Shown here piece by piece: positions 26,768-53,359 of a stretch of 57,341 bases of DNA. Every line of letters starts with the position of its first letter. The stretch's first letter is position 1. A model generated the notes under the pieces. It was not told the DNA's origin. It ran no database searches and saw nothing but the letters and a program-made list of their open reading frames with translations. Made by a program: the position numbers and the translations under genes. Source of the stretch: a virus (lineage: Duplodnaviria; Caudoviricetes); the IMG/VR virus record IMGVR_UViG_3300020034_000017, positions 1 through 57,341 of that record; one strand, written 5' to 3'.

Positions 26768-26792
26768 CGCAGAAAATACATGCACTGTAATG
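26768..26792 (+). promoter_or_regulatory. Candidate phage promoter, copy 5
   Basis: CGCA-GAAAA-TACA-TGCAC-TGTAAT-G. Confidence 0.75.
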
Positions 26793-26851
26793 AGAAGAAG
26801 ATCTGTCTGTATAGACAGCGCTTCTCTTTTTGTCTCATATTTGGAGGACTA

Positions 26852-27094
26852 ATGACAAACGCACAAAAAGAAGAGCTAGCACAAGAAGCCGTCGAGATGT
26901 ACAAGGATGGGATCTCGATTCATATTCCGAAGAAGGTTGCCGTCGGTCTCTTCGGAGCTGTTATCGCCGCCAACGTCGCGACCGTGTTCGTGATGCAGGC
27001 AATGGTTATCGTGGCGAAGCGATTCAAGAAGGATGAAGACGATGCGGACGTTGTGGTGGTCCAAACACAACGTGATGGAAATACTAAGGAGTAA
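26852..27094 (+). CDS. Small single-TM protein
   Basis: RBS TTGGAGGA; VAVGLFGAVIAANVATVFVMQAMVIVA. Confidence 0.7.
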   Translation: MTNAQKEELAQEAVEMYKDGISIHIPKKVAVGLFGAVIAANVATVFVMQAMVIVAKRFKKDEDDADVVVVQTQRDGNTKE

Positions 27095-27119
27095 CGCAGG
27101 ATCTACATCCACTGTAATG
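27095..27119 (+). promoter_or_regulatory. Candidate phage promoter, copy 6
   Basis: CGCA-GGATC-TACA-TCCAC-TGTAAT-G. Confidence 0.75.
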
Positions 27120-27238
27120 AGAAGAGGACGAGACACGCAGGTGTAGCACCAACAAACCAAAAGTTGCTACCCGTCCGGTGCGATCGAGAGATCGCTAATC
27201 ACGGTTTGCGCTGGGCTGTGAACCCTAGACTTCTCATT
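27116..27238 (+). ncRNA. Candidate small structured RNA or leader (about 120 nt)
   Basis: Closing helix AATGAGAAG/CTTCTCATT, internal GCGATC-GAGA-GATCGC hairpin, U-rich tail, no ORF. Confidence 0.55.
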
Positions 27239-27269
27239 TCATTTTGTCTGATGAAAGGACGGAAGCCCG

Positions 27270-28016
27270 TTGACAACACCAGCTATTTTTGACAGAACAA
27301 TCAAAACGCTCAAATCGCATTCACCTGAAATCCTGACCGCCTTCGGGATCACAGGTGTTGCTACAACCGCATATTTGACTGGAAAGGCAACCGTCACTGC
27401 CACGAGACTTGTGGATGAGAGTGAGAGCCGAGGCGGCATCTCTAATGTTCGCAAGCAACGAATCAAGGAGCGTGTACAACTTGTCTGGAAGCTCTACATC
27501 CCAGCAGCCTCTTCGGGTGCCATCACGATTGCTTGCATTTTTGGTGCTCAAAGGGTTAATACTCGTCGGACTACGGCTGCTGTCACGGCGTATACGGTCG
27601 CTGAACGAGCTTTCTCAGAATACCGAGAAAAGGTCGTAGAGCAGATCGGAAAGGGGCCAGAACAGAAAGTTCGTGACAAGATTGCTCAAGATAGGGTAGA
27701 CAAATTTCCGCCTTCTGGGCTAGTTGTCATGGGCACGGGTCATGTTCTGTGCTGTGAGCTGTACACCGGGCGATATTTCCAGAGCGAGATGGAAACGCTC
27801 AAGCAAGCCAGGAACGACATCAATGCAAGAGTCAATCAAGAACGTTGGGTAACGCTGAGTGAGTTCTATGACATCATCGGTCTAGATCACACGTCAGTAT
27901 CTTCCAGCCTTGGGTGGGATGCAGACAAGCTGATGGATATTCAGTTCACGTCTGTTCTTGCTGAGGGTAAGGACCCATGCCTAGCGTTCGACTACAACTA
28001 CGTGAAGCCACTCTAG
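27270..28016 (+). CDS. DUF6353-like membrane-associated protein, paralog 1
   Basis: HSPEILT..G..G...T N-terminus, KLYIPA, C-terminal VTLSEFYDIIGL..LGW. Confidence 0.7.
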   Translation: MTTPAIFDRTIKTLKSHSPEILTAFGITGVATTAYLTGKATVTATRLVDESESRGGISNVRKQRIKERVQLVWKLYIPAASSGAITIACIFGAQRVNTRRTTAAVTAYTVAERAFSEYREKVVEQIGKGPEQKVRDKIAQDRVDKFPPSGLVVMGTGHVLCCELYTGRYFQSEMETLKQARNDINARVNQERWVTLSEFYDIIGLDHTSVSSSLGWDADKLMDIQFTSVLAEGKDPCLAFDYNYVKPL

Positions 28017-28029
28017 AGGAGATATTTGA

Positions 28030-28170
28030 ATGGATGAAACCACAATCGCTGCCATCGAGCTTCCGCCCATGCAGAAGCTGGGTGTGCTCGTGTTGGGCAC
28101 AATCGCAGGATTCGCTGCCGACCATTTCACCAGAAAGGGTGTCACGAAGTTCCTTCTGAACCGACAGTAA
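28030..28170 (+). CDS. Small single-TM protein (46 aa)
   Basis: RBS GAGGAG; KLGVLVLGTIAGFAA. Confidence 0.65.
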   Translation: MDETTIAAIELPPMQKLGVLVLGTIAGFAADHFTRKGVTKFLLNRQ

Positions 28171-28176
28171 ACCATT

Positions 28177-28211
28177 ACCAGAGTGTGTGCTTTGGCATGC
28201 ACTCTGGTTTT
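28177..28211 (+). terminator. Intrinsic terminator
   Basis: ACCAGAGTGTGTGC-TTTG-GCATGCACTCTGGT-TTT. Confidence 0.7.
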
Positions 28212-28233
28212 GCCAGATGAAAGGACGGCATAT

Positions 28234-28488
28234 TTGACTTGGTTCGTATTAGCTGCAGCCGTTCCAGACGGCACACAGATCTTGGCAGTAGATGCTCCAG
28301 TTCGTCGGGACGCCATGATATTTGCTGAGAAGCAGATTCGTGAGGTGTACAAACTTCCGACCAGCTACGAGATCATGGGACAAGTTCTCGAAGAGTGCAC
28401 CACAGAAGAGGAAGCCCGATCGTTTATGGAACGTCTTCGTGACGTCATGGAGAAAGCAAAGGAAAAAGATGCTCAAGCGACCGATTAA
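28234..28488 (+). CDS. Hypothetical protein
   Basis: RBS GAAAGGA before TTG. Confidence 0.6.
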   Translation: MTWFVLAAAVPDGTQILAVDAPVRRDAMIFAEKQIREVYKLPTSYEIMGQVLEECTTEEEARSFMERLRDVMEKAKEKDAQATD

Positions 28489-28945
28489 GTACAAGGATTT
28501 TGATGACCAGGATGTTGAAGAGGAGTTCTACTTCAACATCTCAGAAGCAGAGATCATTGAGCTAGAGCACGAGCACAAGGGCGGAATGTCCGGGTGGTTG
28601 GAAGAGCTTGTCAAAATTGAAGACAACAAAAGACTGTTTGCGGAGTTGAAGAACATTGTCTTGCTTTCGTATGGCGAGAAGTCTCCTGACGGAAAGCAGT
28701 TTGTCAAGAGTCCTGAGATTCGCGCTGGTTTCGAATCCCATGCTGCATACAATGCGCTAATGTACGAGATCTTCTCGGATGAAGGCAATGCGGCCGCTTT
28801 CTTGACTGGCGTCTTCCCAGAGCGAGTTCGCAAAGAAATCGCAGAGAATGCCGCTAAGAGAGCAGCGAAGGATGCCGGTGCTGATTCCCCAGCAGAACCG
28901 AAGCCTCCGCTTCCTCCTACTCCCCCGACTCCACCTACGACTTAA
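28469..28945 (+). CDS. Conserved hypothetical phage protein
   Basis: MLKRPIKYKDFD..EEFYFN..SYGEKSPDGKQFVKS; Pro-rich tail. Confidence 0.7.
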   Translation: MLKRPIKYKDFDDQDVEEEFYFNISEAEIIELEHEHKGGMSGWLEELVKIEDNKRLFAELKNIVLLSYGEKSPDGKQFVKSPEIRAGFESHAAYNALMYEIFSDEGNAAAFLTGVFPERVRKEIAENAAKRAAKDAGADSPAEPKPPLPPTPPTPPTT

Positions 28946-28954
28946 GGAGCCTTT

Positions 28955-29668
28955 ATGGCAGACGAAGAAGAACCGAAGGAAGATGAGCCAAAAGGGAAGG
29001 CCGTCGATCCAAGAGAACCTAAGCCGACTAAGGGCACGGATTACTCCAACGCTCAAAAGAAAGGCGGACGGCAGAAGGTAGAGAAGGCTGAGAAGAACAT
29101 CAAGAAGGTCGTCTCTGGCGAAGTCAAAGTCGAGAAGCGAGGCATCGGTAAGAAGATCAAAGATCTCTTCGTCGCGGCTGATATCAGATCTGTCTGGTCA
29201 TACGTGGCCTTTGATATTCTGATTCCAGCAGCAAAGGGAATGATCGTGGACGGTGTTGCTCGTGGTGCTGATCGATTTGTCTACGGAGATAGCCGTGCAG
29301 CACGACGAAGTGGTGGTCTCGGTGAGCGTTCACGTATCACGTACGGCGGAATCGTCGATCGTGGTCGCGACGAGCGCAGAGATTCTCGTACACGTCCACC
29401 GAGCAACATCGATCGCACTCGACATCCTCGCTCGAACCGAAACGACTATATCTTCACCAGACGAGAAGATGCTGTCGATGTTCTAGACGAGATGTATCGT
29501 GTTCTCGAGGTCTGCGACGTTGTTTCTGTCGGAGACTTCAACGACATGGTTGGACTTCCTTCTCCTCACACAGATCAGAAGTGGGGTTGGGAGGAACTCC
29601 GAGGTGTTGATATTCGTGATGTACGTAGCGGATGGGTGATTGATCTTCCAGACCCCGAGCCAATCTAA
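28955..29668 (+). CDS. Hypothetical protein with DUF6353-like C-terminal motif
   Basis: VVSVGDFNDMVGL..KWGW resembles the C-termini of the neighbouring paralogs. Confidence 0.7.
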   Translation: MADEEEPKEDEPKGKAVDPREPKPTKGTDYSNAQKKGGRQKVEKAEKNIKKVVSGEVKVEKRGIGKKIKDLFVAADIRSVWSYVAFDILIPAAKGMIVDGVARGADRFVYGDSRAARRSGGLGERSRITYGGIVDRGRDERRDSRTRPPSNIDRTRHPRSNRNDYIFTRREDAVDVLDEMYRVLEVCDVVSVGDFNDMVGLPSPHTDQKWGWEELRGVDIRDVRSGWVIDLPDPEPI

Positions 29669-29685
29669 CGCAAAGGAGGTTGGGT

Positions 29686-29820
29686 GTGGATACGAATCAG
29701 CAAAGGGAAGCATTACTAAAGGTGTACCCGCACTGGACCGACAAGGTGAAGAAGATGTCTGAGGCTCAGGTCACAGCCATTTTCCTACGGCTTCAATCTC
29801 AAGGAAAGTTGGGTAAATGA
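29686..29820 (+). CDS. Small hypothetical protein (44 aa)
   Basis: RBS AAAGGAGG; ..VYPHWTDKVKKMSEAQVTAIFLRL. Confidence 0.65.
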   Translation: MDTNQQREALLKVYPHWTDKVKKMSEAQVTAIFLRLQSQGKLGK

Positions 29821-30698
29821 TGAAATTCGTACCTACAGGTGTGACACGGCTAGTTGGTAAAACCATGTTGCAGACGAAGAAGAACTCGCCGCATATTTTC
29901 TTCGCTGCTGGAGTAACCGGAGTGTGTGTCAGTACGTTTCTCGCTTGTCGAGCAACTCTGAAGCTGGAGCCAGTTCTAGATCAGATGAAGGACAATCTTG
30001 ACAGAGCGAAGCGAAAGCCTGACGTTGCTGAAAGAAACGGAATCGGATATTCTGATTCTGAACATCGACGAGAGATGGCTCATGTGTACTTCCAGGGAGG
30101 CAAAGAACTAGGTAAGCTTTATGGTCCCGCTTTCGTTGTGGGAGCGGCATCCATTACTGCACTCACAGGTTCACATGTTCAGCTTTCTCGTCGCAATGCT
30201 GCTCTCACGGCTGCATACGCTGGTATCGCTCAGGCACTCGAAGAGTACCGAGGGCGTGTCAGGGCGGAGGTCGGCGATGAGAAGGAGAGTGATATTTGGC
30301 TCGGAGTCGAAGAGCAGACTATCACAGATGAAGATGGCAAGAAGCAAAAGATCAAGGTTGCAGCAAATCCGGAGCGTCATTCTCGATTCTTCGATCAGAA
30401 ATGCGGTAACTGGAAGCCAGATCCAGATTACAACCGTTTCTTCTTGCAATCTCAGCAGAACTTCTGGAATCAGCGACTCCATGCCTTCGGGTATGTCTTC
30501 CTGAACGACGTTTACGAGTCACTCGGCTATGAGCGAACCAGCGATGGTCAGCTTCTTGGTTGGACTGTGGACTCAGGGGAAGGCTATATTTCGTTCGGGC
30601 TTGAGGATCATCTGAACGTCAAGAATCGAGATGTTCTGGGATGGAGTCAGCTTCTCACGTTCAACATCGACACAACCGTAATGTACCACAAGATCTAG
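29817..30698 (+). CDS. DUF6353-like protein, paralog 2
   Basis: KNSPHIFFAAG, KLYGPA, QQNFWNQRL..GYVFLNDVYESLG..LGW. Confidence 0.7.
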   Translation: MMKFVPTGVTRLVGKTMLQTKKNSPHIFFAAGVTGVCVSTFLACRATLKLEPVLDQMKDNLDRAKRKPDVAERNGIGYSDSEHRREMAHVYFQGGKELGKLYGPAFVVGAASITALTGSHVQLSRRNAALTAAYAGIAQALEEYRGRVRAEVGDEKESDIWLGVEEQTITDEDGKKQKIKVAANPERHSRFFDQKCGNWKPDPDYNRFFLQSQQNFWNQRLHAFGYVFLNDVYESLGYERTSDGQLLGWTVDSGEGYISFGLEDHLNVKNRDVLGWSQLLTFNIDTTVMYHKI

Positions 30699-30710
30699 GA
30701 GGGATCCGTT

Positions 30711-31574
30711 ATGAACGAGCGCATTGCTCATATTTTCAAGAGCCCCTGGACGATTCCATCGGCTGTTGGCGTTGTTGCGTTCGGAGGAGGTGTTGGTCTA
30801 GGTTATATTCTCGGTAAGCGAAAGGCTGAGAAGGATCTGGACGCGCAGTTTACCAACGTCTCTTACGATGAGGTCAAGGATTACTTGGCAGGTGACGGAG
30901 ACGATGAAGTCCATGAGTTCTTCGACACAGAAGGAATGGCTAGGCAACGAGTGATCATCGACGAAGAGGCATACCATTCTCCAGCGGTTATTCCGGAGAC
31001 GGATGCTGAGATTGGACCAAATGGCGATACCGTCATCGTGCGACCTCAAGACTTCGGCGAGGAGCATCTGGAGGACGATATTTCCGAGAAGTCGTTCGAG
31101 GAAGAGTTGCGAGAAGGCACTCCTCACGAAGACACCGAGGAACCGGATTTCGAGCCTGTTCATGTTAACGTTTTCGATGATGGCAACTGGGATTGGGAGA
31201 TCGAAGTTGCTGCTCGAGAAGCTCTCAACCCCGGCACGCCGTATATCCTGCATCGAGACGAGTTCTACAGAAACGAGTTCGACTACACCCAGACCACACT
31301 CGCATATTACGAAGGTGATGAAACCGTGGTCGTCGAAGGAGAGCAGGAGCCTCTCTTTGATTTCCAAAGGTTGACGGGTGAGCTGAACTTTGGTCACGGA
31401 TCAGGGGATCCAAACGTCGTTCTCATTCGCAACGACGAACGACGAGCCGAGTACGAGATTTGTCGTAACGAAGGACATTTCGCAAAGGAAGTTCTCGGGT
31501 ACGAGGCTGAGCAACGAGCAGAAGCCAAAGACCTGAAGCACTCCCGAGTCGGAAGGTTCCGGGACGAGGACTAA
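30711..31574 (+). CDS. Membrane-anchored acidic protein
   Basis: N-terminal TM (AVGVVAFGGGVGLGYILG); acidic body. Confidence 0.7.
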   Translation: MNERIAHIFKSPWTIPSAVGVVAFGGGVGLGYILGKRKAEKDLDAQFTNVSYDEVKDYLAGDGDDEVHEFFDTEGMARQRVIIDEEAYHSPAVIPETDAEIGPNGDTVIVRPQDFGEEHLEDDISEKSFEEELREGTPHEDTEEPDFEPVHVNVFDDGNWDWEIEVAAREALNPGTPYILHRDEFYRNEFDYTQTTLAYYEGDETVVVEGEQEPLFDFQRLTGELNFGHGSGDPNVVLIRNDERRAEYEICRNEGHFAKEVLGYEAEQRAEAKDLKHSRVGRFRDED

Positions 31575-31576
31575 CC

Positions 31577-32095
31577 ATGGCTGAGCCTCTTGAAGAGACA
31601 TATTTCAAGTGGCTTTGCGCAAAAGTACGCAAAAACTCAGGCTCACACCACTACAACCTGTTTAGAATCCTTCACAACACCGAGTTCACTTGGGTTGTGA
31701 GTATGGACAGGAACAGAGCAGCGGATGGGCGGGAACTCCGAGAGTATTACTGCACTGCAGCATATGTTCGAAAAGATCGGATCTGGTTCGGAGAACCATG
31801 TTCGGTACTCGAGATGCTAATTGCATTTGCTGATCGGGCTTCATATCAGACAGACATGCCGCTGAGAGACTGGTTTTGGCAGTTCATGATCAATCTCAAG
31901 CTTGACGGATACAGCGGAGTAAGTAGGTCTGATGAACCGTACATCGAGGAGATTCTCTATATCTTCTTGGCTAGACAGTACGACGAGTGTGGCGACGGAG
32001 GTTTGTTTCCGTTGCGCAAGCCATGTAAACGCGATCAAAGAAGGAGGGAACTCTGGTATCAGCTGTTTGACTACTTGGACGACCAGGGCATCTGA
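31577..32095 (+). CDS. Conserved hypothetical protein upstream of the replicase
   Basis: YFKWLC..DRNRAADG..CSVLEMLI..GGLFP..ELWYQ. Confidence 0.7.
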   Translation: MAEPLEETYFKWLCAKVRKNSGSHHYNLFRILHNTEFTWVVSMDRNRAADGRELREYYCTAAYVRKDRIWFGEPCSVLEMLIAFADRASYQTDMPLRDWFWQFMINLKLDGYSGVSRSDEPYIEEILYIFLARQYDECGDGGLFPLRKPCKRDQRRRELWYQLFDYLDDQGI

Positions 32096-32106
32096 AAGGA
32101 GGGGTA

Positions 32107-35100
32107 TTGGATTTCTATAACATCGTAATTCGAGAGAATGAGAAGAAAGGTACCCTTCAGATTCGTCCTGATTGGCGAGTAGGTCCATCAAATGATCTAA
32201 TGACTAGGTCTGGTTCGTTCTATGCTGTTTGGGACGAACAGAGAGGACTTTGGTCACAGAACATCTACGATGTGGCACGTCTGGTCGACGCAGATCTCAT
32301 GCGATATTCCAGAGAACAGCAGAAGAAGACTGGGCTACCGTACGACGTAGCTAGGTTGGAGATCAACAGCACAAAGCTGTGGGATGAGTTCCAGAGGTTC
32401 ATCCGTAACAGTGGTAGTAACAGCGTCAATCTGGATGAGCGTCTCGTATTTGCCAACACCGAGGTCAAGAAGACGGATTACGCCTCCAAGCGTCTTTCAT
32501 ATTCTCTCGCTGCTGGTCCATACGATGCATGGGACACCATTGTTGGGACTCTTTTCAATGAAGAGGAACGAGCCAAGATCGAGTGGGCCATAGGAGCAGT
32601 TGTTTCTGGTGATAGCAGGTTCATCCAGAAGTTCCTCGTTTTCTATGGTCCACCGGCCAGCGGCAAGTCCACCATTCTCAACATCATCCACAAGATGTTC
32701 AATGGCTACACAGCAGTGTTCGACGCTCGAGAACTGGCAGCTAGCGGCAACTCGTTTGCTGCATCTGCTTTCAAATCGAATCCTCTTGTAGCCATTCAAC
32801 ATGATGGTGATCTGTCCCGGATATACGACAATACAAAGCTGAACTCAATTGTTGCTCATGAGATCATCCCGATCAACGAGAAGTACAAAGCCGTGGTCGA
32901 ATCTCGATCAAATGCGTTTCTGTTTATGGGAACCAACCTACCGGTCAAGATTTCGGACGCCAAATCAGGCATCATCCGACGTCTGATCGACGTTATTCCC
33001 ACACAGCAGATGATCGAGAACAGTCACTATCATCGTTTGATGGAGCAAGTCAACGGCGAACTTGGGGCAATTGCTCAGCATTGTCTGGACGTATATTCGA
33101 CGATGGGTAGGAACTACTACAGTGGTTACCGCCCAACTGAGATGATGCTCCAGACAGACGTGTTCTACAACTTCGTCGAGGCACACTTTGATATCTTCAA
33201 GGAGCAAGACGGCGTTACCTTGAAGCAAGCTTGGGAGCTCTACAAGACATACTGCCAGGAGACAGGCATCGAGAAGATGCTTCCTCAGTACAAGATTCGG
33301 GAAGAGTTGAAAAACTACTTCTACGTGTTCGAAGAGCGAGCACGCATTGACGGGCACAATGTCCGTTCATATTACCAGGGGTTCAAGAACCTCACTTCCA
33401 CTCCAACCGCCGAGATCCCGATCAAACCAGAAGGCGTCTACGAGATCGTCTTGCAAGAACAACCATCGGTCTTCGACGTACAATATCCTGGGCTGTTGGC
33501 ACAGTACAAGCACGAAGAAGAGGATCGACCTGAGCACAAGTGGATCAATGTCACGACAACGTTGTCGGATATTGACACGTCGAAGTTGCACTATGTCAAG
33601 GTTCCTGAGCAGCATATTGTCATCGATCTTGATCTGACTGACGAAGATGGCAACAAGAGCCTTGAGGCTAATCTGAAGAAGGCAGCAGAGTTCCCACCGA
33701 CTTATGCAGAGGTAAGCAAGAGCGGACAAGGCTTGCACCTCCACTATATCTACACGGGTGACGTTCGAGAACTGGCTTCTGTGTACAACGTTGGAATCGA
33801 GGTCAAGACACTTCTTGGGGACAGTTCCCTGCGGAGAAAATTGACTCTTTGCAACAACATGAACATCACTCCTCTTGACGGAGGTTTGCCTAAGAAGGAG
33901 AAGCCCGTGATCTCGGATAAGAGCATCAAGACCGAAAGGGGGCTTCGTGAACTCATCATCAGGAATCTGCGCAAGGAGATCAATGCGGGCACCAAGCCTT
34001 CTGTCGATTTCATCCATCACATCCTCGAAGAAGCTTACAATTCGGGTATGTCTTACGACGTAAGAGACATGCGAAGTGATATTCTCACGTTCGCTGCCAG
34101 GAGTTCTAACCAAGCTGCAGCGTGTATCAAGCTGGTACAGCAAATGCAGTTTGTTGGGCAGAACTCCATGGAAGAAGTTGAACCGGGGGATGGCCCCATT
34201 GTCTTCTTTGATGTTGAGGTATACCCGAACCTGTTCGTCGTATGTTGGAAAGCTGAAGACTCGGATACGGTCGTACGAATGATCAACCCGGCTCCGAAGG
34301 AGATGGAAGGTCTGTTCGCCATGAAGCTGGTTGGCTTCAACTGCCGGCGATACGACAACCACATCATCTACGCTCGGTATCTCGGATATTCGTTGGAGCA
34401 GCTCTTCGAACTTAGCCAGAAGATCATCGCTGGCGGGAACGACAAAACGATGCTCTTTGGGGAAGCATACAACCTCTCGTATGCGGATATCTACGACTAC
34501 AGTGCCAAGAAGCAAGGGCTCAAGAAGTTCATGATCGAGTACGACGTTCCTCACATGGAACTTGATATTCCGTGGGATGAGCCTGTTCCGGAAGGAATGT
34601 GGGACAAGATTGTAGACTACTGTGTAAACGACGTTCTCGGCACAGAGACTACACACAAAGAACGTAAGCAAGACTTCGTCGCTCGGCAAATCCTTGCCGA
34701 AATTTCAGGGTTGTCTGTCAATCACACGACGCAAGCACACACTGCCAAGATCATTTTCGGTGAGGACAGGAACCCGCAGCGAGCGTTTGTTTACACGGAT
34801 CTGAGTGAAATGTTCCCAGGCTACAAGTTCGATGGAAAGGAGAGTACCTACCGTGGGGAAGTCACTGGTGAGGGTGGTTACGTCTACGCAGAACCCGGCG
34901 TGTATGAAAACGTCGCCCTTCTGGACGTTGCGTCCATGCATCCGACGAGTATCGAGCGTCTCAACCTATTCGGTCCATACACCGAGCGTTTTGCCGATCT
35001 CAAAACAGCGAGAATGGCAATTAAGCGTAAGGATGACGAGGCAGCCGCTAGGCTATTGGGAGGTAAACTCGAGAAGTTTGTGGGCGGCAGCGATGCAGAT

Positions 35101-35859
35101 CGTGAAGCTCTATCGTACGCCCTCAAAATCGTAATCAATACTGTTTACGGTTTGACGAGTGCACGATTTGAGAATGCTTTCCGAGACAATCGCAACAAGG
35201 ACAACATCGTAGCCAAGCGTGGCGCTTTGTTCATGGTCGATCTGAAGGTTGCTGTTCAAGAGAAGGGATTCCAGGTTGCGCACATCAAGACTGACTCCAT
35301 TAAGATCCCGAATGCCAACCAAGACATCATCGATTTCGTTGTCGAATTTGGTAGGCAATACGGTTACGATTTCGAGCACGAAGGAACATATGACAAATTC
35401 ATTCTCGTCAATGATGCGGTCTATATTGCTCGAACCGGAGACAAGTGGACTGCAGTGGGTGCACAGTTCCAACACCCCTACGTCTTCAAGAAGCTCTTCA
35501 CACACGAACCAGTAGTCTTCAATGATTTCTGTGAGACAAAGAACGTCATTCAGGGAGCAATGTACATGGACTTCGTTGGATCCGAGGATCTGAAGGACAT
35601 GGTTCATGTTGGGCGCACTGGTAGCTTCGTGCCAGTCACTGAAGGGGGCGGAACTCTCTGGCGTGTCAAAGACGACAAGAAGTACGCCGTCACTGGCACC
35701 AAGGGATATTCTTGGGTTGTCCGAGACGTTGCTCGAAGCATGAACGATGCTGACATGCTAAACATCGATTCTTCATATTTCGAGGATCTGAAGGCAAAAG
35801 CTATTGAAGCGATCATGCAGTTCGACACACTAGGTGACTTCGAGCAAATCATTTCCTAA
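32107..35859 (+). CDS. Fused SF3 helicase / AEP primase / 3'-5' exonuclease / DNA polymerase
   Basis: Walker A GPPASGKST and MGTN (SF3); IDLD..SKSGQGLHLHY (AEP); FDVEV, GFN..YD, YCVNDV (exonuclease); DVASMHP, KIVINTVYG, KTDS (B-family-like polymerase motifs). Confidence 0.88.
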   Translation: MDFYNIVIRENEKKGTLQIRPDWRVGPSNDLMTRSGSFYAVWDEQRGLWSQNIYDVARLVDADLMRYSREQQKKTGLPYDVARLEINSTKLWDEFQRFIRNSGSNSVNLDERLVFANTEVKKTDYASKRLSYSLAAGPYDAWDTIVGTLFNEEERAKIEWAIGAVVSGDSRFIQKFLVFYGPPASGKSTILNIIHKMFNGYTAVFDARELAASGNSFAASAFKSNPLVAIQHDGDLSRIYDNTKLNSIVAHEIIPINEKYKAVVESRSNAFLFMGTNLPVKISDAKSGIIRRLIDVIPTQQMIENSHYHRLMEQVNGELGAIAQHCLDVYSTMGRNYYSGYRPTEMMLQTDVFYNFVEAHFDIFKEQDGVTLKQAWELYKTYCQETGIEKMLPQYKIREELKNYFYVFEERARIDGHNVRSYYQGFKNLTSTPTAEIPIKPEGVYEIVLQEQPSVFDVQYPGLLAQYKHEEEDRPEHKWINVTTTLSDIDTSKLHYVKVPEQHIVIDLDLTDEDGNKSLEANLKKAAEFPPTYAEVSKSGQGLHLHYIYTGDVRELASVYNVGIEVKTLLGDSSLRRKLTLCNNMNITPLDGGLPKKEKPVISDKSIKTERGLRELIIRNLRKEINAGTKPSVDFIHHILEEAYNSGMSYDVRDMRSDILTFAARSSNQAAACIKLVQQMQFVGQNSMEEVEPGDGPIVFFDVEVYPNLFVVCWKAEDSDTVVRMINPAPKEMEGLFAMKLVGFNCRRYDNHIIYARYLGYSLEQLFELSQKIIAGGNDKTMLFGEAYNLSYADIYDYSAKKQGLKKFMIEYDVPHMELDIPWDEPVPEGMWDKIVDYCVNDVLGTETTHKERKQDFVARQILAEISGLSVNHTTQAHTAKIIFGEDRNPQRAFVYTDLSEMFPGYKFDGKESTYRGEVTGEGGYVYAEPGVYENVALLDVASMHPTSIERLNLFGPYTERFADLKTARMAIKRKDDEAAARLLGGKLEKFVGGSDADREALSYALKIVINTVYGLTSARFENAFRDNRNKDNIVAKRGALFMVDLKVAVQEKGFQVAHIKTDSIKIPNANQDIIDFVVEFGRQYGYDFEHEGTYDKFILVNDAVYIARTGDKWTAVGAQFQHPYVFKKLFTHEPVVFNDFCETKNVIQGAMYMDFVGSEDLKDMVHVGRTGSFVPVTEGGGTLWRVKDDKKYAVTGTKGYSWVVRDVARSMNDADMLNIDSSYFEDLKAKAIEAIMQFDTLGDFEQIIS

Positions 35860-35868
35860 AGGAGGATA

Positions 35869-36333: not shown

Positions 36334-36344
36334 AAGGAACACCA

Positions 36345-38383: not shown

Positions 38384-38414
38384 TGGACGCGGAGACTGAT
38401 CCGAAAGGGCTAAG

Positions 38415-38648: not shown

Positions 38649-38649
38649 T

Positions 38650-41962: not shown

Positions 41963-41972
41963 GAGGAGTTAG

Positions 41973-42737: not shown

Positions 42738-42755
42738 TCGAATAAGGAGATTTTG

Positions 42756-43141: not shown

Positions 43142-43177
43142 ACGCCCACCCACCACCCCATTTCAAAGGAGATAATT

Positions 43178-44077: not shown

Positions 44078-44315
44078 TGAACGCGACATCGAGTACGAAT
44101 TTCACCTCCTCGATGGGCGACTTGAACGGGGTCATATCCACTTCGGTCGCCTGTATGATGGGTCTGGAATCGCCGGAACCACGTACAAAATGGACGGAAC
44201 TCCAATGGTAGTGGCTCTGGCTTCTGCAGGTAGAAACGCGTTCGAGCGATCACAAATCGAGCCAAGAATCTTCATGCCTTGGTCTTCCATCATGTCGTAC
44301 AAGAAACTCGACTGA
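44061..44315 (+). CDS. Hypothetical protein
   Basis: RBS AAGGAGGAG. Confidence 0.6.
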   Translation: MLFLNDERDIEYEFHLLDGRLERGHIHFGRLYDGSGIAGTTYKMDGTPMVVALASAGRNAFERSQIEPRIFMPWSSIMSYKKLD

Positions 44316-44321
44316 GCCTTC

Positions 44322-44398
44322 GCCTCTGTAGCTCAGTTGGTTAGAGCAGCGGCCTTTTAAGCCGATGGTCGAAGGTTCGAATCCTTCCAGGGGCACCA
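44322..44398 (+). tRNA. tRNA-Lys(UUU)
   Basis: Acceptor GCCTCTG/CAGGGGC, D arm GCTC/GAGC, anticodon loop CTTTTAA, GGTTCGAATCC T arm, encoded CCA. Confidence 0.93.
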
Positions 44399-44424
44399 TA
44401 TTCGACTACCTATTTGGAGGAGCA

Positions 44425-44751
44425 ATGGAAATCGAAGTTCAATACGACGAGACTAGTACCAGCTGGAACCCAAGCGGATCGTACAACCACATGTTCTTGC
44501 TGGCACAGCAGAACTACTTCAACCAAAGGCTCCAGAGCTTCGGTTTTGTGATCCTTAACGAAGTATATGAGGCTCTTGGTATTCCTCGTACGACGCAAGG
44601 ATGCATCACCGGTTGGGTCTTGCTTCACGACGACCATATTGACTTCGGTTTGGATCAGGTGGAGAACTGGTGCGCCGCGACACTGCGTCTGAACGTCAAG
44701 GGGATCATGTTCGGATACATCGACATGATCAACCGGGCGGTGACATCATGA
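44425..44751 (+). CDS. Stand-alone DUF6353-like C-terminal domain
   Basis: QQNYFNQRLQSFGFVILNEVYEALGIPRT..GW aligns with the C-terminus of 29817..30698. Confidence 0.7.
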   Translation: MEIEVQYDETSTSWNPSGSYNHMFLLAQQNYFNQRLQSFGFVILNEVYEALGIPRTTQGCITGWVLLHDDHIDFGLDQVENWCAATLRLNVKGIMFGYIDMINRAVTS

Positions 44752-44990
44752 GCACATATCTACGGATGTGGGAGCTCATCAAGACGTCATCCGTAAAAGA
44801 ACGCGACGACTTTCTCAGAGAACATCCTCGTGCCGAGGGTAAAGACATAGAGTTCCAGGGTCAAACTTTCTTCGACGTTGATCTGCTAGAGGCTATCCGA
44901 AGCTCGCTAAAGACCAGTGATATCGTTTGCGAGAATCCGGAGTGTCCTGACGTTGGCAGATGCGGCGGCGAATGTGCACGGAAATTCTAA
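44748..44990 (+). CDS. Hypothetical protein with Cys-rich tail
   Basis: ATGA overlap. Confidence 0.55.
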   Translation: MSTYLRMWELIKTSSVKERDDFLREHPRAEGKDIEFQGQTFFDVDLLEAIRSSLKTSDIVCENPECPDVGRCGGECARKF

Positions 44991-44993
44991 TCA

Positions 44994-45063
44994 GGGGAGG
45001 CTTATCCTCATAGACGAGCTCGGCCGAAGCCGAGGCTGGTGAAATAATCCGGCAAGCCCACCA
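44994..45063 (+). ncRNA. tRNA-like cloverleaf element
   Basis: GGCTT/AAGCC closing stem, three arms, ends in ACCA; lacks canonical anticodon and T loops. Confidence 0.4.
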
Positions 45064-45077
45064 CAAGGAGTACCGTA

Positions 45078-45191
45078 ATGTTCGTAATCGAGATGGAGGT
45101 AGAGAAATCCACGCTTAGTAAGAGTGCTGTGATCATTTTCATCGCTCTAACCGAGTACCTTCTCATCCGCAAGATCAAGAGCTTGGAGTAG
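45078..45191 (+). CDS. Small hydrophobic peptide (37 aa)
   Basis: RBS AAGGAG. Confidence 0.5.
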   Translation: MFVIEMEVEKSTLSKSAVIIFIALTEYLLIRKIKSLE

Positions 45192-45193
45192 AC

Positions 45194-45571
45194 ATGGATG
45201 AACCTATTACCCCGGACGCGTTTCGGGATTCAATTGCGGAAACCGCCGAGCGTCTTGGAGAGCAACTCAAGAGTTCGGTCGCAGCAGAAAGCATGTCCGC
45301 CATGAAAAAAGAAGCCAAGGAGAGATTCAAGATGGTTACAGCAGACAGGGTTTGGATTGCAGTCATCGCCGGCGGAGGTCTGCTCGTTCGCGACCGTCAC
45401 CATCGCAGGAAGATCAAGGAGCTCAAGAAGCTCGCAACGGCTCTTGCCCTCGAGAACGAGTTCCTTCATGCCTTCATCAAGGGCCTCATGGATCCCAGTG
45501 CCGACAAGGCAGAGATCTTGAAAGGTCTCACCGGCAAGCTCCAGAAGCTCAATCTGGCTAGGGCTGCTTGA
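45194..45571 (+). CDS. Hypothetical membrane-associated protein
   Basis: RBS GGAG; short hydrophobic stretch. Confidence 0.6.
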   Translation: MDEPITPDAFRDSIAETAERLGEQLKSSVAAESMSAMKKEAKERFKMVTADRVWIAVIAGGGLLVRDRHHRRKIKELKKLATALALENEFLHAFIKGLMDPSADKAEILKGLTGKLQKLNLARAA

Positions 45572-45765
45572 TGGATCTTGACGAACTAGGACGAAAGATC
45601 AACGAAAAGGCAGCTGGACTTCAAGAAGCAATTGAAGAGTTCAGACAGGAGGGAATTGCTGATATTGAGGCTGCCAAAAACGACATGATCCTTGGAGAGA
45701 TCAGAAAGCTCAACACTCGACTCGATGGAATTGAGGCGCGACTTCCTGACCCCGAGGAGGACTGA
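45571..45765 (+). CDS. Small coiled-coil protein
   Basis: TGATG coupling. Confidence 0.55.
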   Translation: MDLDELGRKINEKAAGLQEAIEEFRQEGIADIEAAKNDMILGEIRKLNTRLDGIEARLPDPEED

Positions 45766-45917
45766 TGAAGTTCGGTAAGAGCAAAGAGAAGAGAACTCGA
45801 CGACGAACGCGGCATTACCTTGCTAGTCCTAAGGGTATCATGCTGAAGAAGCAGATGCGCAGACGACGCGCCAAGAACAAAGTGGCACGGGCTTCGAGGC
45901 AGAAGAATCGGCCATGA
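45765..45917 (+). CDS. Arg/Lys-rich 50-aa peptide
   Basis: RBS GAGGAGG; MKFGKSKEKRTRRRTRHYLASPKGIMLKKQMRRRRAKNKVARASRQKNRP. Confidence 0.55.
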   Translation: MKFGKSKEKRTRRRTRHYLASPKGIMLKKQMRRRRAKNKVARASRQKNRP

Positions 45918-45928
45918 TGTTTACAGAC

Positions 45929-45953
45929 CGCAGTAAATACACGCGCTATAATG
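45929..45953 (+). promoter_or_regulatory. Candidate phage promoter, copy 8
   Basis: CGCA-GTAAA-TACA-CGCGC-TATAAT-G. Confidence 0.75.
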
Positions 45954-45970
45954 AGGAAAGGAGGAACCAC

Positions 45971-46009
45971 ATGCGCCGTATTCGCGGAGTTGAATGGGGA
46001 GGCAAGTAG
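45971..46009 (+). CDS. 12-aa micropeptide MRRIRGVEWGGK
   Basis: Own promoter copy, RBS AAAGGAGG at normal spacing, own terminator. Confidence 0.5.
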   Translation: MRRIRGVEWGGK

Positions 46010-46013
46010 CCTC

Positions 46014-46048
46014 AAAAGCTGGGGATCCCTACGGGGATTCTCAGTTTT
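46014..46048 (+). terminator. Terminator hairpin (variant of the repeat family)
   Basis: AAAAGCTGGGGATCCC-TACG-GGGATTCTCAGTTTT. Confidence 0.7.
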
Positions 46049-46063
46049 ACAACCATATACGCT

Positions 46064-46088
46064 CGCAGTTCCTACATGGTGTATTATG
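46064..46088 (+). promoter_or_regulatory. Candidate phage promoter, copy 9
   Basis: CGCA-GTTCC-TACA-TGGTG-TATTAT-G. Confidence 0.75.
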
Positions 46089-46111
46089 GAGACCACTATG
46101 AAAGGACTACA

Positions 46112-46297
46112 ATGCGAAAGATGCACTTGCTAAACAAGAACAACCCGCAACGTCCATTCTGTGCAGCTCGCATTGACATGATTCGAAACGGTTTCGATAC
46201 AACCGAAATCGAAGAAGAAGTTACATGCCGGCTTTGCAGGATGACGCTGGGGTTGCTCGAAGATACAAGAGGCAACTGGGACAACAGAACCAAGTAG
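46112..46297 (+). CDS. Small Zn-binding protein (cassette gene)
   Basis: H..C..VTCRLC; RBS GAAAGGA. Confidence 0.65.
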   Translation: MRKMHLLNKNNPQRPFCAARIDMIRNGFDTTEIEEEVTCRLCRMTLGLLEDTRGNWDNRTK

Positions 46298-46303
46298 AAA
46301 TCC

Positions 46304-46336
46304 AAAAGTGAGAGTGCTAACAAGCATTCTCATTTT
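46304..46336 (+). terminator. Repeated terminator hairpin, copy D
   Basis: AAAAGTGAGAGTGC-TAACAA-GCATTCTCATTTT. Confidence 0.75.
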
Positions 46337-46340
46337 CGCA

Positions 46341-46365
46341 CGCAGAGCGTACATGCTTTGTAATG
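46341..46365 (+). promoter_or_regulatory. Candidate phage promoter, copy 10
   Basis: CGCA-GAGCG-TACA-TGCTT-TGTAAT-G. Confidence 0.75.
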
Positions 46366-46485
46366 AGAAGAGGAGACCACCCCGATAGGAACCCAATGGA
46401 CAAGCGCCAATCAATGCAAATTGAGAAGGCTCGTAACAAGATCCTGGATGGTAACATCTACTCTATTTTTTCTCTAGGAGGAAAC

Positions 46486-46701
46486 ATGGTAATTATCAAG
46501 GTTAGTTTCACCAATCTTCACTTGATTACCGCATTAAATGCTGGGGTGATCCCGAACATCGATGAAGAGAACCCTATGTTTTTGATCATGGAGAGCGGAG
46601 AGGTAAATCGCATCATCTCGTCAGAGGAGCTACATGAGATTTCTACTACGAAGAAGTTGAATTTGAGAACGGTAGAGATTTTCTACGCATCTTTTACATA
46701 G
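46486..46701 (+). CDS. Hypothetical protein
   Basis: RBS AGGAGG. Confidence 0.6.
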   Translation: MVIIKVSFTNLHLITALNAGVIPNIDEENPMFLIMESGEVNRIISSEELHEISTTKKLNLRTVEIFYASFT

Positions 46702-46710
46702 GTTGTAATG
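46686..46710 (+). promoter_or_regulatory. Candidate phage promoter, copy 11
   Basis: CGCA-TCTTT-TACA-TAGGT-TGTAAT-G. Confidence 0.75.
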
Positions 46711-46831
46711 GAGACTAACCCACAGAAACGACTTGTCGAGACGAAGACTCTAATCCAGTCAGAAGCGTGGCACGGATCGAATCCCGGCATTGGTAAAACA
46801 GTTGATTATCTCCAAATTGAAAAGGAGTTCG

Positions 46832-47149
46832 ATGATGGGTAATGATAGATATGAATATGTGTGGGTTGAAATCTACTCAGACCAGCTCAATAAATTAGGC
46901 AATGAAGGTTGGCGGGTTGTGCCTGGAGTTTTTAATCAGCGATCCCGAGACAACGCGCCTTCTGTTTTGATGGAGCTGACAAAGGAACCGAAAGAGACAA
47001 AAGTTATGGGTGATGACCTCGAGATCAAAGAAGAAACACCCGTCGAAACGTGTGGAGCAACAAGAGCGGCCAGGTGGGCAGCCCGTGCGACATGCTCGTT
47101 CCCTAAGCATGGTCCAGATACCCCACATTCGTGGGTAGCAACCACTTAG
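46832..47149 (+). CDS. DUF4177-like protein
   Basis: YEYVWV..LNKLGNEGWRVV; RBS AAAGGAG. Confidence 0.55.
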   Translation: MMGNDRYEYVWVEIYSDQLNKLGNEGWRVVPGVFNQRSRDNAPSVLMELTKEPKETKVMGDDLEIKEETPVETCGATRAARWAARATCSFPKHGPDTPHSWVATT

Positions 47150-51672: not shown

Positions 51673-52141
51673 AGAATGGGTGGTTATTGAGGAGGCATCA
51701 AACTATCTGGTAAGTAATCTAGGTAGGGTCTATAGCAAAACTACCAATAGAATTCTCAAGCCGGGTATGGGTGGTCAAGGAGCCTACCCGTTTGTTGTTC
51801 TTTCAAATGGGGGTCCACAGTTCAACCGATATGTACACGTGCTAGTCGCCGAAACTTTCGTTACGAATTGGGACAACAAACCCGAAGTTAATCACATCGA
51901 CGGCAATCATACCAACAATGAATACTGGAACCTAGAATGGGCAACCCACAAAGAAAACATGGAGCATGCGTCCATAATGGGTCTAATGGGAAAAAGGGTG
52001 AAAATTGTCGAAACTGGCGAGGTTTTCAAGAGTTTGACCGCTTGTGCGCGTGCCATAAACGGGCAGCCAGGAAACATAAGTCACTGTTTGAGTGGCCGAA
52101 GAAGGTCACATCGAGGTTTTACGTTTGAATTGATAGACTGA
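51665..52141 (+). CDS. NUMOD4-HNH homing endonuclease with C-terminal NUMOD1-like domain
   Basis: YLVSNLGRV, VHVLVAETF, VNHIDGNHTNN..NLEWAT..EN, FKSLTACARAI. Confidence 0.85.
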   Translation: MIEEWVVIEEASNYLVSNLGRVYSKTTNRILKPGMGGQGAYPFVVLSNGGPQFNRYVHVLVAETFVTNWDNKPEVNHIDGNHTNNEYWNLEWATHKENMEHASIMGLMGKRVKIVETGEVFKSLTACARAINGQPGNISHCLSGRRRSHRGFTFELID

Positions 52142-52288
52142 AATGGAGATGAAATAGTGATGTCCAATTCTTCCGACTTTGGCATACGATTCAGATTTGA
52201 CAAACGTGGCACCGATGGGATTATACTGAAGTACACTAAAAAGTCGCTGAAATAGGGTCTTTATGTGTACATACGGTACATTTCATAG

Positions 52289-52431
52289 ATGTGTCAAATC
52301 TGATCGATTTAGAGCTAAAAACTCTCTACTACAGAACCTACTACATACGCTCTTTTCCTGCCCGCGTAAAGGAAGTAAGCGTATGTAGTGCGATCTTCAC
52401 TAGAGAGTTTTGGATTATGGATTTGACACAT
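52289..52431. repeat. Nested long inverted repeat (candidate origin/cruciform)
   Basis: ATGTGTCAAATC/GATTTGACACAT, AAAACTCTCTA/TAGAGAGTTTT, ACTACATACGCT/AGCGTATGTAGT, TTCCT/AGGAA. Confidence 0.75.
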
Positions 52432-52472
52432 TATTTGACACACGAGTCTAACCACACCAAATTGGAGGCGAA

Positions 52473-52772
52473 ATGGGACTTCTAAACGAATTAATCTTTA
52501 CTGAGGCAGTTGAGCAGGTTCAGGCGATTCTCACGTCTCAGAGCTCCGACGAGATTAGCGATCGTCTGGAAGCGATTGTCAAGATCGAGGATTTGGCACT
52601 GGCGTGCCTCATGTTGCTAGCTATGAAGGCTAAGGGTATTGACATATCTGATGCTAATGGAATTGAGATGGCAAACGCCCAACCAACAATCGCGGATCTC
52701 ATCATTGCTAGTCCAGGAACACCTATCGACGCATATGTGATTCTACCATCGAGAGGAGGACAACATGAGTAA
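52473..52772 (+). CDS. Hypothetical protein
   Basis: RBS TGGAGG. Confidence 0.6.
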   Translation: MGLLNELIFTEAVEQVQAILTSQSSDEISDRLEAIVKIEDLALACLMLLAMKAKGIDISDANGIEMANAQPTIADLIIASPGTPIDAYVILPSRGGQHE

Positions 52773-53268
52773 TCCTTCATGGAGCAGAATTCCAGAGTTT
52801 CCAAACTACATCATCAATGACCGTGGTGAGATCTTCAATCTATCCGCAGATCAGTACATGCGTGTCTATCCAAATACGTATGGACACATGAGAATCACTT
52901 TGACCAATGTCGAAACCGGTAAGCGGTATGATCGTGGAGTTGCTAAACTCGTTGCAGAGGCCTTTGTAGAGCCACCTAACGATCTCTGCACTCGTGTCAT
53001 GATACTCGATGGGCAATTGTTCCACGTAAGTGCTCAGAACCTCGTGTGGCGGCCAATGTGGTTTGTCATGCGATACTCTCGGCAATTGAAACGAGATCAT
53101 CCAGCTCACTATAGTAATCTTCGAATCAAGAACGTCGAGACAGGTAAGCGATACGACAACATCATTGAATGTGCTATGGCCGAAGGTCTTCTCTTTGACG
53201 ATGTCTGGAGATCAACTTTCAGTGGTGCAAAGATCTTCCCATATGGTGATACCTTCGAGATTGTCTAA
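52765..53268 (+). CDS. NUMOD4-domain protein with degenerate HNH site
   Basis: WSRIPEFPNYIINDRGEI, VAKLVAEAFV, NLVW; catalytic His replaced. Confidence 0.65.
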   Translation: MSNPSWSRIPEFPNYIINDRGEIFNLSADQYMRVYPNTYGHMRITLTNVETGKRYDRGVAKLVAEAFVEPPNDLCTRVMILDGQLFHVSAQNLVWRPMWFVMRYSRQLKRDHPAHYSNLRIKNVETGKRYDNIIECAMAEGLLFDDVWRSTFSGAKIFPYGDTFEIV

Positions 53269-53279
53269 GCGTATGTCCT

Positions 53280-53304
53280 GGCACGCAAAACATGTATTGT
53301 AATG
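53280..53304 (+). promoter_or_regulatory. Candidate phage promoter, copy 12 (variant), heading the operon that contains the RNAP gene
   Basis: GGCA-CGCAA-AACA-TGTAT-TGTAAT-G. Confidence 0.6.
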
Positions 53305-53359
53305 AGGGAGAGTCGCAAATTGATTCTCTTCACACCCTTTCTCTTTTTTCGGAGGCTTG

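Follow-up and report, generated by a model that had tools for sequence, protein, structure and literature searches.

The window considered here is the complete contig IMGVR_UViG_3300020034_000017, a viral DNA of 57,341 bp in which every long open reading frame (ORF) lies on the + strand. This report concerns a promoter motif repeated across part of it and the leaders, called L1 to L6, that separate six copies of the motif from their genes, several of which pair the presumed first bases of the transcript with a pyrimidine tract shortly before a run of U. The genome is that of an actinophage and, because it encodes a large terminase, a portal, a protease-capsid fusion, a tape measure and a Gp37-like tail protein, of a siphovirus. 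The terminase shares 77% identity with its counterparts in Gordonia cluster DJ phages and in some Streptomyces phages. The 917-amino-acid (aa) ORF at 54229-56982, hereafter the polymerase-like gene, has full-length relatives of 45-53% identity in 250 phage records (host genera Arthrobacter 95, Gordonia 55, Streptomyces 54, Lactococcus 13, and others); in certain of these records the gene carries the annotation RNA-dependent RNA polymerase or putative RNA polymerase.

The motif, CGCA-N5-TACAYG-N3-TRTWATG, occurs in 12 copies between 25388 and 53304, all on the + strand. A scan that allows up to 3 mismatches gives 13 matches against 1.16 expected, 12 of which were retained, and the opposite strand of the window carries zero copies. 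The box reads TATAAT or TGTAAT; the blocks conserved upstream of it fall at about -30 to -27 and -21 to -16, away from -35. Six copies, at about 25388, 26024, 26298, 26561, 45929 and 46064, have a short leader of 22-32 nucleotides (nt) from motif to start codon. The remaining six drive L1 to L6 and have 56-151 nt to the start codon, so the earlier observation that a subset of promoter copies is followed by long leaders is upheld. The structural half of the genome (1-25387) holds zero copies of the motif and few terminator-like sites, and it would have to be transcribed from other promoters or by read-through across the joined genome ends. The same motif is present in six cultured phages, on the forward strand only and with zero control matches: Gordonia phages Petito (12 copies) and Crocheter (7), Arthrobacter phages Phaby (7) and Tribby (2), Streptomyces phage Esketit (8) and Rhodococcus phage ReqiPoco6 (14). 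It also occurs in the IMG/VR contig L151, which like Petito and Crocheter is a cluster DJ record.

All six long leaders sit between a motif copy and a Shine-Dalgarno sequence (SD) with its start codon (Table 1). The original prediction held that each closes its 5' end on its 3' end, with a purine-rich start paired to a downstream pyrimidine tract. This closure is solid in L1, L2 and L3, partial in L6, degenerate in L4 and unsupported in L5, and the finding is therefore real for three or four of the six sites. Folding z-scores are lowest for L3, L1 and L2, closer to zero for L6 and L4, and positive for L5; the folding of L4 does not exceed that of shuffled sequence. None of 200 shuffles is as stable as L3, while 136 of 200 are as good as L5; the closing helix of L2 is backed by covariation. 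A stem followed by a U-run within about 3 nt is found in L1, where U5 follows directly, and in L2 (AUUUCAUUUU). In L6 the minimum-energy hairpin spans 53303-53332, and closure of GAGGG (53304-53308) on CCCTT (53335-53339) is an alternative only. The minimum-energy fold of L4 pairs the transcript start with the T-run itself; the leader contains two GNRA-capped hairpins (GCAA, GUAA) and an imperfect stem, then UA and U6. L4 is a weak, degenerate member of the set, and L5 is probably not a member. GNRA loops, which had been noted in several leaders, occur in L2 (GAGA) and L4 alone, that is, in two of six.

Table 1. Motif copies, leader modules with their helices, and the seventh short unit of the window
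Feature	Position	Strand	Sequence and pairing	Fold z	Ribosome site and start codon
L1 promoter	26768-26792	+	CGCA-N5-TACATG-N3-TGTAATG		
L1	26792-26831	+	GAGAAG 26792-26797 pairs with CTTCTC 26821-26826, then T5 26827-26831	-2.67	SD 26843, ATG 26852
L1 inner hairpin	26803-26808/26813-26818	+			
L2 promoter motif copy	27095-27119	+			
L2	27117-27246	+	ATGAGAAG 27117-27124 pairs with CTTCTCAT 27230-27237, then TTTCATTTT; 105 nt enclosed	-2.26	TTG 27270 (DUF6353 gene)
L2 P1	27117-27124/27230-27237	+			
L2 P2	27126-27130/27172-27176	+	inner helix 27141-27148/27165-27171		
L2 P3	27180-27183/27192-27195	+	GAGA loop		
L2 P4	27199-27207/27213-27221	+			
L2 U-rich tail	27238-27246	+			
L3 promoter motif copy	38847-38871	+			
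L3	38869-38931	+	ATGAGA 38869-38874 pairs with TCTCAT 38917-38922; long inner hairpin; T5 38927-38931	-5.32	SD 38945, TTG 38954
L4 promoter motif copy	46341-46365	+			
L4	46365-46471	+	GAGAAG 46365-46370 against CTACTC 46458-46463, one A-A mismatch; T6 46466-46471	-0.91	SD AGGAGG (perfect) 46476, ATG 46486
Motif copy ahead of L5	46686-46710	+			
L5	46709-46814	+	TGGAGA 46709-46714/TCTCCA 46809-46814; no U-run	+0.41	
Motif copy ahead of L6	53283-53304	+	variant; shorter spacing, 2 mismatches to the pattern		
L6	53304-53349	+	5'-terminal hairpin GAGAGTC 53308-53314/GATTCTC 53322-53328; T6 53344-53349	-1.24	SD 53351, ATG 53360 (VRR-NUC-like gene)
Seventh short unit	45929-46048	+	promoter 45929-45953; 12-codon ORF; terminator 46017-46048	-4.47 (terminator hairpin)	SD (strong) 45960, ATG 45971

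None of the window leaders matches Rfam 15, either at the gathering score or at E up to 5, the only match in the window being tRNA-Lys at 44322-44395, and neither a tRNA model nor ARAGORN finds a match in the six modules. A blastn-short comparison of L1, L3, L4, L5, L6 and the unit at 45953 with 190 loci returns short matches only (E from 1e-4 to about 1), the strongest being four to the terminator end of the 45953 unit. Clear relatives exist for L2 alone. The unit at 45929-46048, absent from the original prediction, is a seventh short unit; its terminator consists of the hairpin 46017-46044 and T4, and the next promoter copy is the one at 46064. Its product may be a micro-peptide or a small RNA.

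Whether the pairing of start and 3' arm (hereafter the clamp) exceeds chance can be judged from relatives, which were gathered by promoter pattern from metagenome and viral contigs. Together with the window and the named phages they form 191 sources with 302 motif copies, or 258 distinct units once identical and truncated ones are dropped. GAGAAG starts number 108, a share inflated by harvest patterns that demanded ATGAGAAG but did not select the downstream sequence; 73 of these have a helix of at least 6 bp beginning in the first 3 nt and at least four T, 26 have the helix only, and nine have no such helix. A strict Watson-Crick complement with a T-run follows 67 of the 108 promoter starts, compared with 38 of 599 other occurrences of GAGAAG in the same loci and strand. 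When arms are counted without assuming pairing, GAGAAG starts are followed by CTTCTC with a T-run in 48 cases and by CCTCTC with a T-run in one, whereas for the 12 GAGAGG starts the corresponding numbers are one and six. Arms compatible with G-U pairing are tolerated (CTTCTT 15, CTTTTC 3), which argues for RNA rather than DNA pairing, and many helices extend to 7-16 bp with unrelated sequence past the conserved six bases. These comparisons indicate that the clamp pairing is selected at the RNA level and is not a product of chance. Covariation in relatives, proposed together with the original prediction as a check on it, is thus found between transcript start and 3' arm, as it is within L2 (26 of 33 pairs). 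Because start and 3' arm covary, the base at +5 after the TATAAT-like box belongs to the RNA, and transcription would accordingly begin nearer the box than at a sigma-70-type promoter.

L2 encloses a more elaborate structure than the other leaders. Alignment of seven relatives of 27117-27249 and folding with RNAalifold give four helices, with 16 of 33 pairs compensated. A covariance model finds 23 matches at E <1e-6 in 22 sources and 32 at E up to 0.01 among 91 sources. In the alignment fitted to the model, pairing covers 96.8% of cells, and both sides have changed in 26 of 33 pairs; such an alignment leans to the model's structure, and the independent seven-sequence fold gives the same helices. 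No shuffle out of 500 reaches this covariation, and slid controls are 38-47% paired. Four of the eight closing-helix (P1) pairs covary, and P4 has three conserved U-G pairs. An alternative route, MAFFT followed by RNAalifold on the 23 relatives, recovered P4 only because the 5' ends were misaligned, and was set aside. Rfam gives no match over the element in the window copy, nor in L032, L044, L105 or L108 at E up to 1. By these comparisons, L2 represents a new, uncatalogued RNA family of 23 members, and the members differ by frame-shifting indels. In 17 of 21 loci a homolog of the window's 248-aa protein, a DUF6353 protein, is encoded downstream of the RNA, which in the window probably serves a distinct function connected with the DUF6353 gene block. 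Of the features expected of a riboswitch, an aptamer-like conserved fold with covariation is present, but no alternative, mutually exclusive pairing was seen in L2, and its relatives in L032 and Petito (31067) stand alone. The block headed by L2 contains two paralogous DUF6353 genes, 27270-28016 (248 aa) and 29817-30698 (293 aa). DUF6353 is found in 237 phage records, against 250 for the polymerase-like gene, and in the same host genera; a search for literature on DUF6353 found no paper.

The units in relatives show that closure is not confined to leaders of genes. The 258 units comprise 124 short leaders, 47 that are closed and then followed by an SD and gene, 26 closed and followed by another promoter copy, 17 closed and seeming to enclose a small ORF, 15 closed with another continuation, and 29 unclassified. 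Closed non-coding units therefore number 88 (47 ahead of a gene, 26 ahead of a promoter, 15 other), and the 26 that precede a promoter stand alone as small RNA units. Mean T-run lengths are alike, 5.7 against 5.3, whether a gene or a promoter follows. For example, the Crocheter unit after 32916 lies in an unannotated gap between genes 39 and 40 with the next promoter directly behind it, and the Petito unit after 31067 is a stand-alone copy of the L2 type that ends in T9 before the next promoter. The enclosed sequence, or cargo, is diverse. Tandem repeated hairpins form the cargo in L009, L053, L096, L154, L181 and Petito 33756. In Crocheter the cargo at L003:184-250 (32945-33011) is tRNA-like, scoring 42.6 bits to RF00005, with canonical acceptor, D and T arms, but the anticodon loop is replaced by a 4-nt loop (a GCAA tetraloop); L151 contains a near copy, and ARAGORN calls no tRNA on the Crocheter RNA. 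Of the 71 sequence clusters into which the 88 closed non-coding units fall, 69 have one or two members, as would be expected if the role is generic and structural; for most units this makes a specific trans-acting function less likely. Closure of whole messages, suggested by apparent pairing of the 5' end with the terminator behind the gene in 17 units, was dropped as a rule because most L084 cassettes have ordinary local terminators. A metagenomic relative also carries a Pistol ribozyme match (L105:2106-2168; 55.8 bits, gathering score 34.5), situated about 300 nt past a tRNA-Lys gene.

In the window, leader type goes with operon type. The long blocks (27270 to 38.8 kb, 38954 to 45.9 kb, and 53360 to the end) stand behind closed leaders, and four of the six long leaders head long operons, whereas the short leaders belong to one-gene cassettes that encode small proteins, mostly of the membrane, and close with strong terminators. 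All six long leaders stand directly before a ribosome site with no second promoter, which means that the window modules act at least as leaders. The gene behind L3 is read from an SD-led frame beginning at 38954, with 62.6% identity over 123 aa to homologs in L089 and L135; since the homologs support this frame, the L3 leader is non-coding. Homologs of the VRR-NUC-like gene behind L6 occur in many loci. In L025, L049, L092 and L119 they follow a promoter and a closed leader that ends in a U-run and has an unrelated interior, in Phaby (53275) the leader is closed by start GATAGGA and arm TCCCATC, and in Petito (56413) there is a 5'-proximal hairpin and T4 only. At orthologous positions, clamp and U-run are kept and cargo is not.

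Several neighbouring arrangements may be recorded alongside. The block behind L6 (53360-57341) contains the VRR-NUC-like gene, a Cas4/RecB-like exonuclease, the polymerase-like gene and a small ORF, an order conserved in Streptomyces, Rhodococcus and Arthrobacter records; in the Streptomyces and Rhodococcus records an HNH endonuclease gene and a gap of about 100 nt precede the VRR-NUC/endonuclease gene. Lactococcus phage 1706 and Faecalibacterium phage FP_oengus keep only the polymerase-like gene and the next small ORF of this block, which in FP_oengus lies away from the genome end. An ORF-poor stretch of about 540 nt (L089:6430-6969) separates a closed leader from the homolog of gene 38954; the window has a similar stretch at 39335-39950, but after the gene. 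Among the cassettes, gene 25435-25731 is followed by two successive terminators (25754-25807 and 25845-25877), the first a very strong 52-nt hairpin of -37.5 kcal/mol and the second an A-tract, CCCCGGGGGG and a T-tract, near-copies of which follow closed units in L131 and L176. Four near-identical terminators, at 26265-26295, 26530-26558, 26738-26766 and 46307-46337, consist of AAAGTGAGAGnnC, a loop and GnnTTCTCATTTTC, and each adjoins the next promoter. One of the four has a compensated stem change (GTGC/GCAT against GTCC/GGAT), and their 3' arm also matches the promoter's first bases.

No near-identical phage was found in the phage and viral collections searched. Megablast of 26000-30000 against phages gave no match, the sole blastn match of 25900-27400 is an 87-96-nt stretch in 11 Gordonia records, and a viral-contig search with the 248-aa protein confirmed no relative. 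The sequencing runs that contain the genome's DNA are soil metagenomes only. Contigs of three DNA runs over 26700-46699 are almost identical to the window; they carry A>T at 46441 in all three cases and, once, a 2-nt insertion at 26747 that resembles cross-mapping of a paralogous terminator.

On balance, and with little more than even confidence, we read the long leaders as leaky promoter-proximal terminator-like modules, specific to this lineage, that would release clamped RNAs while passing some transcription. Transcription would start at or adjoining the G after the TATAAT-like box. The purine-rich first bases (GAGAAG) would form the 5' strand of a helix, and CUUCUC, often CUUCUCAU, just before the U-run would form its 3' strand; because that strand immediately precedes the U-run, the leader would be a clamped stem around variable cargo and resemble an intrinsic terminator. 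Part of the polymerases would stop in the leader and release a short RNA, which should be stable since both of its ends are base-paired. The remaining polymerases would enter the operon, and the message would keep the clamp as a 5' cap. With a single invariant promoter, the modules would set the output of each operon and, where they hold cargo, also deliver a small RNA. This account has as its observed basis the architecture, the enrichment, the covariation of the clamp and of L2, and the stand-alone copies in relatives; from these we infer where transcripts start, that they terminate and are stable, and that some polymerases read through. Three modules, those at 26792, 38869 and, in a less clean form, 53304, contain a hairpin only and most likely act in cis, setting how much transcription from a fixed-strength promoter gets through and protecting the 5' end. 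The original prediction had offered a choice between phage small RNAs on a common scaffold and attenuating leaders that gate the downstream operons; these are probably two faces of one device. The former gains from a scaffold that is lineage-wide, stands alone in relatives and covaries in L2, the latter from six leaders placed directly before a ribosome site, four of them heading long operons; L4 and L5 are weak members or non-members. Nothing found points to the anti-CRISPR RNAs or antitoxin mimics suggested under the former, though host CRISPR repeats and toxin-antitoxin RNAs were not among the sequences compared. More tentatively, the clamp-and-terminate scaffold could be an expression cassette for a fast-evolving library of trans-acting small RNAs, of which the plain-hairpin leaders would be the empty form. 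Its cargoes would include the four-helix junction RNA (27117-27246), the tRNA mimic without an anticodon loop and the tandem-hairpin arrays, acting as decoys or regulators in infection; this is possible, and we hold it clearly on the doubtful side.

Several observations weigh against leaky termination. As no second promoter precedes the genes, an efficient terminator would silence the replication and polymerase-like operons. Stem bases that adjoin the U-run are A/U-rich (A-U, U-A, G-C), so the modules may be weak terminators or none. Spacing is imperfect in L3, where 4 nt separate the stem from T5, and more so in L6, where the best fold leaves 11 nt between hairpin and T6; L5 lacks a U-run. 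An ordinary sigma-A -10 element would start transcription about 7 nt downstream and leave GAGAAG outside the RNA, an objection that the covariation counters. To these may be added the inflated share of GAGAAG starts, the division of the 88 closed non-coding units into 71 sequence clusters, 69 of which have one or two members, and the fact that no RNA runs containing the genome's DNA are listed for 25300-29300.

Some of the same features would also suit modules that are purely cis-acting 5' caps, which would not terminate but would shield the operon message from 5'-end-dependent nucleases, with the U-rich stretch freeing the ribosome site. The structure starts at the very first transcribed bases, stems by the U-run are A/U-rich, the U-run lies 5-12 nt before the SD in all window cases, the genes have no second promoter, and the layout persists ahead of orthologous genes even as the interior drifts; the T7 gene 10 leader, too, has a 5' hairpin made from the promoter's first bases. 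We nevertheless regard this as unlikely, because the 26 of 88 closed units that precede a promoter, such as Petito 31067 and Crocheter 32916, protect no message, T-runs are equally long before promoters and genes, and the short-leader messages of the same phage are uncapped. The stand-alone copies, the conservation and covariation of L2 and the tRNA-like and tandem-hairpin cargoes of relatives would instead favour the view that each of the six is first of all a free-standing small RNA acting in trans (a decoy, sponge or regulator) whose position by a gene is incidental. That view is distinctly unlikely: L1, L3 and L6 are one plain hairpin each, without sequence relatives among the 190 loci, nearly all cargo clusters are as small as stated, orthologous positions retain the clamp and not the cargo, and neither a target nor a partner was found. 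Quite improbable, in our judgement, are regulated gates, meaning efficient terminators overcome at a set time by a phage antiterminator in the style of lambda Q or N, or a ligand- or protein-responsive switch in P1 of L2. Among 29 query ORFs (27 distinct), Pfam and PHROG scans named no antiterminator, though no dedicated search was made; moreover, gated and ungated promoters share the same upstream motif, L2 shows no alternative antiterminator pairing, and its relatives in L032 and Petito stand alone with a new promoter behind them, an arrangement for which an obligate cis switch would have no use. What such gates would account for is the sequence of promoter, terminator and long promoterless operon, which is the layout of lambda PR'-tR' as described for a lambdoid phage (PMC7547250), the placement of closed leaders on long blocks and open ones on small cassettes, and a junction RNA in L2 whose P1 abuts the U-run and which is syntenic with one gene family in those 17 of 21 loci.

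Two further explanations are the least probable. The pairs might be chance, DNA-level inverted repeats serving as binding or recombination sites, or scars of cassettes that lost the gene lying between promoter start and terminator arm. Cassette terminators (AAAGTGAGAG...TTCTCATTTT) resemble the promoter start plus 3' arm, so that recombination between TGAGA repeats could fuse a promoter to a terminator; the available text of a preprint on cluster AU phages reads their repeat as a recombination boundary (10.1101/2020.01.10.891226), and L5 is compatible with chance. Yet enrichment over control sites is tenfold, clamp and L2 both covary, G-U pairs are tolerated, including the three in P4, the elements lie on one strand only, and the layout is kept at orthologous positions across Gordonia and Arthrobacter phages and metagenomic relatives, so this explanation is largely refuted already for L1-L3 and seems barely credible overall. 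The other possibility, in our view very improbable, is that the ATG of the promoter is a leaderless start codon and that the leaders, at least L4 and L5, are coding. L4 is indeed open in frame with its gene, over 112 codons from ATG 46363, and the gene caller placed that gene's start at ATG 46396, inside the leader; in L5 a 43-codon frame from ATG 46708 (46708-46839) runs into the next gene's start and overlaps it by 8 nt. Across the 258 units, however, 40 codons are reached in 22.9% for the ATG frame and 27.1% for a control frame, and leaderless translation was rejected because the frame is no more open than the control. The ATG frame is short before genes (median 9 codons), the frame-shifting indels among L2 relatives and the SD-led frame behind L3 speak against coding leaders, and L4 has T6 and a perfect AGGAGG 5 nt before ATG 46486. 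No homolog of the L4 or L5 extension was found, the sole match to the 112-aa frame of L4 in a protein search being the window's own 101-aa call.

If leaky clamped terminators are the right account, phages would tune or gate their operons through such modules behind one invariant promoter, not through varied promoters, and the same scaffold would yield small stable RNAs. The group concerned is large and well sampled, with cultured Gordonia, Arthrobacter, Streptomyces and Rhodococcus phages, and provides test cases in cultured phage-host pairs. The modules also explain unannotated gaps in deposited genomes, as between genes 39 and 40 of Crocheter. Further yields are the uncatalogued 23-member RNA family linked to DUF6353, a protein family of unknown function, and an indirect fix on the transcription start by the TATAAT-like box, which bears on the question of which polymerase reads these promoters.

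Late messages of phage T7, such as that of gene 10, carry a 5' hairpin formed by the promoter's purine-rich first bases and a downstream pyrimidine tract, followed by a U-rich stretch and then the ribosome site. As in the window, the promoter's first bases form a helix strand; in contrast to the window modules, the T7 hairpin is short and has no terminator-like U-run, no variable cargo and no stand-alone units. T7 polymerase is a single-subunit T7-type enzyme, whereas the candidate enzyme of the window belongs to a family annotated as YonO/QDE-1-like.

The lambda PR'-tR' unit, which produces 6S RNA, is the second point of comparison. Lambdoid PR'-tR' units share with the window a promoter, an immediate terminator and a long operon, and the short transcript can be a functional small RNA; PR' of Stx phage, for example, is described as terminated just downstream, yielding the regulatory small RNA StxS (PMC7547250). 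The window differs in having six copies per genome instead of one, in drawing the 5' strand of the terminator stem from the very start of the transcript, in its varying cargo and in a promoter that is not of plain sigma-70 type; neither a Q-like antiterminator nor a qut site was identified, no search having been directed at them. In cluster A mycobacteriophages, among them L5, D29 and StarStuff, Pleft is described as giving an abundant, stable, early non-coding RNA, with a drop of >90% for the genes behind it (PMC5712189). According to the available text of that source, the RNA comes from a region of about 500 bp without an evident canonical stem-loop terminator and occurs once per genome, and no 5'/3' clamp is described.

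Repeats that resemble the window's motif have been published for two phage clusters. Gordonia phage Vardy of cluster DJ is reported to carry a 50-bp repeated intergenic motif with a TATAAT box (PMC9671010), and cluster AU Arthrobacter phages a 32-bp repeat, read as noted above (10.1101/2020.01.10.891226). Both are, like the window's motif, repeated intergenic TATAAT motifs in mid-genome, upstream of small genes, and they are likely the same motif. The available text of these reports describes the motifs as promoter or recombination boundary only and leaves structured or clamped RNA modules unmentioned. A literature search, supplements excluded, found no paper on clamped small RNAs of actinophages.

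As to the polymerase, YonO of SPbeta, the member of this kind that has been studied, is described as initiating transcription of its late operon ahead of a non-coding RNA absent from the annotation (PMC5467207). In each of the six cultured actinophages tested, motif and polymerase-like gene occur together; a scan allowing up to 1 mismatch did not find the motif in Lactococcus phage 1706 or Faecalibacterium phage FP_oengus, both of which have a polymerase-like gene, and an annotation note in the ReqiPoco6 record states that the Lactococcus 1706 homolog is called a structural protein. The lack of -35 blocks and the clamp covariation, which would put the start by the box, both fit a phage-type enzyme; pointing the other way, the box is TATAAT, and a motif copy precedes the very gene for the polymerase-like protein. 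Viewed beside these systems, the modules are a widespread, undescribed variant of a known device.

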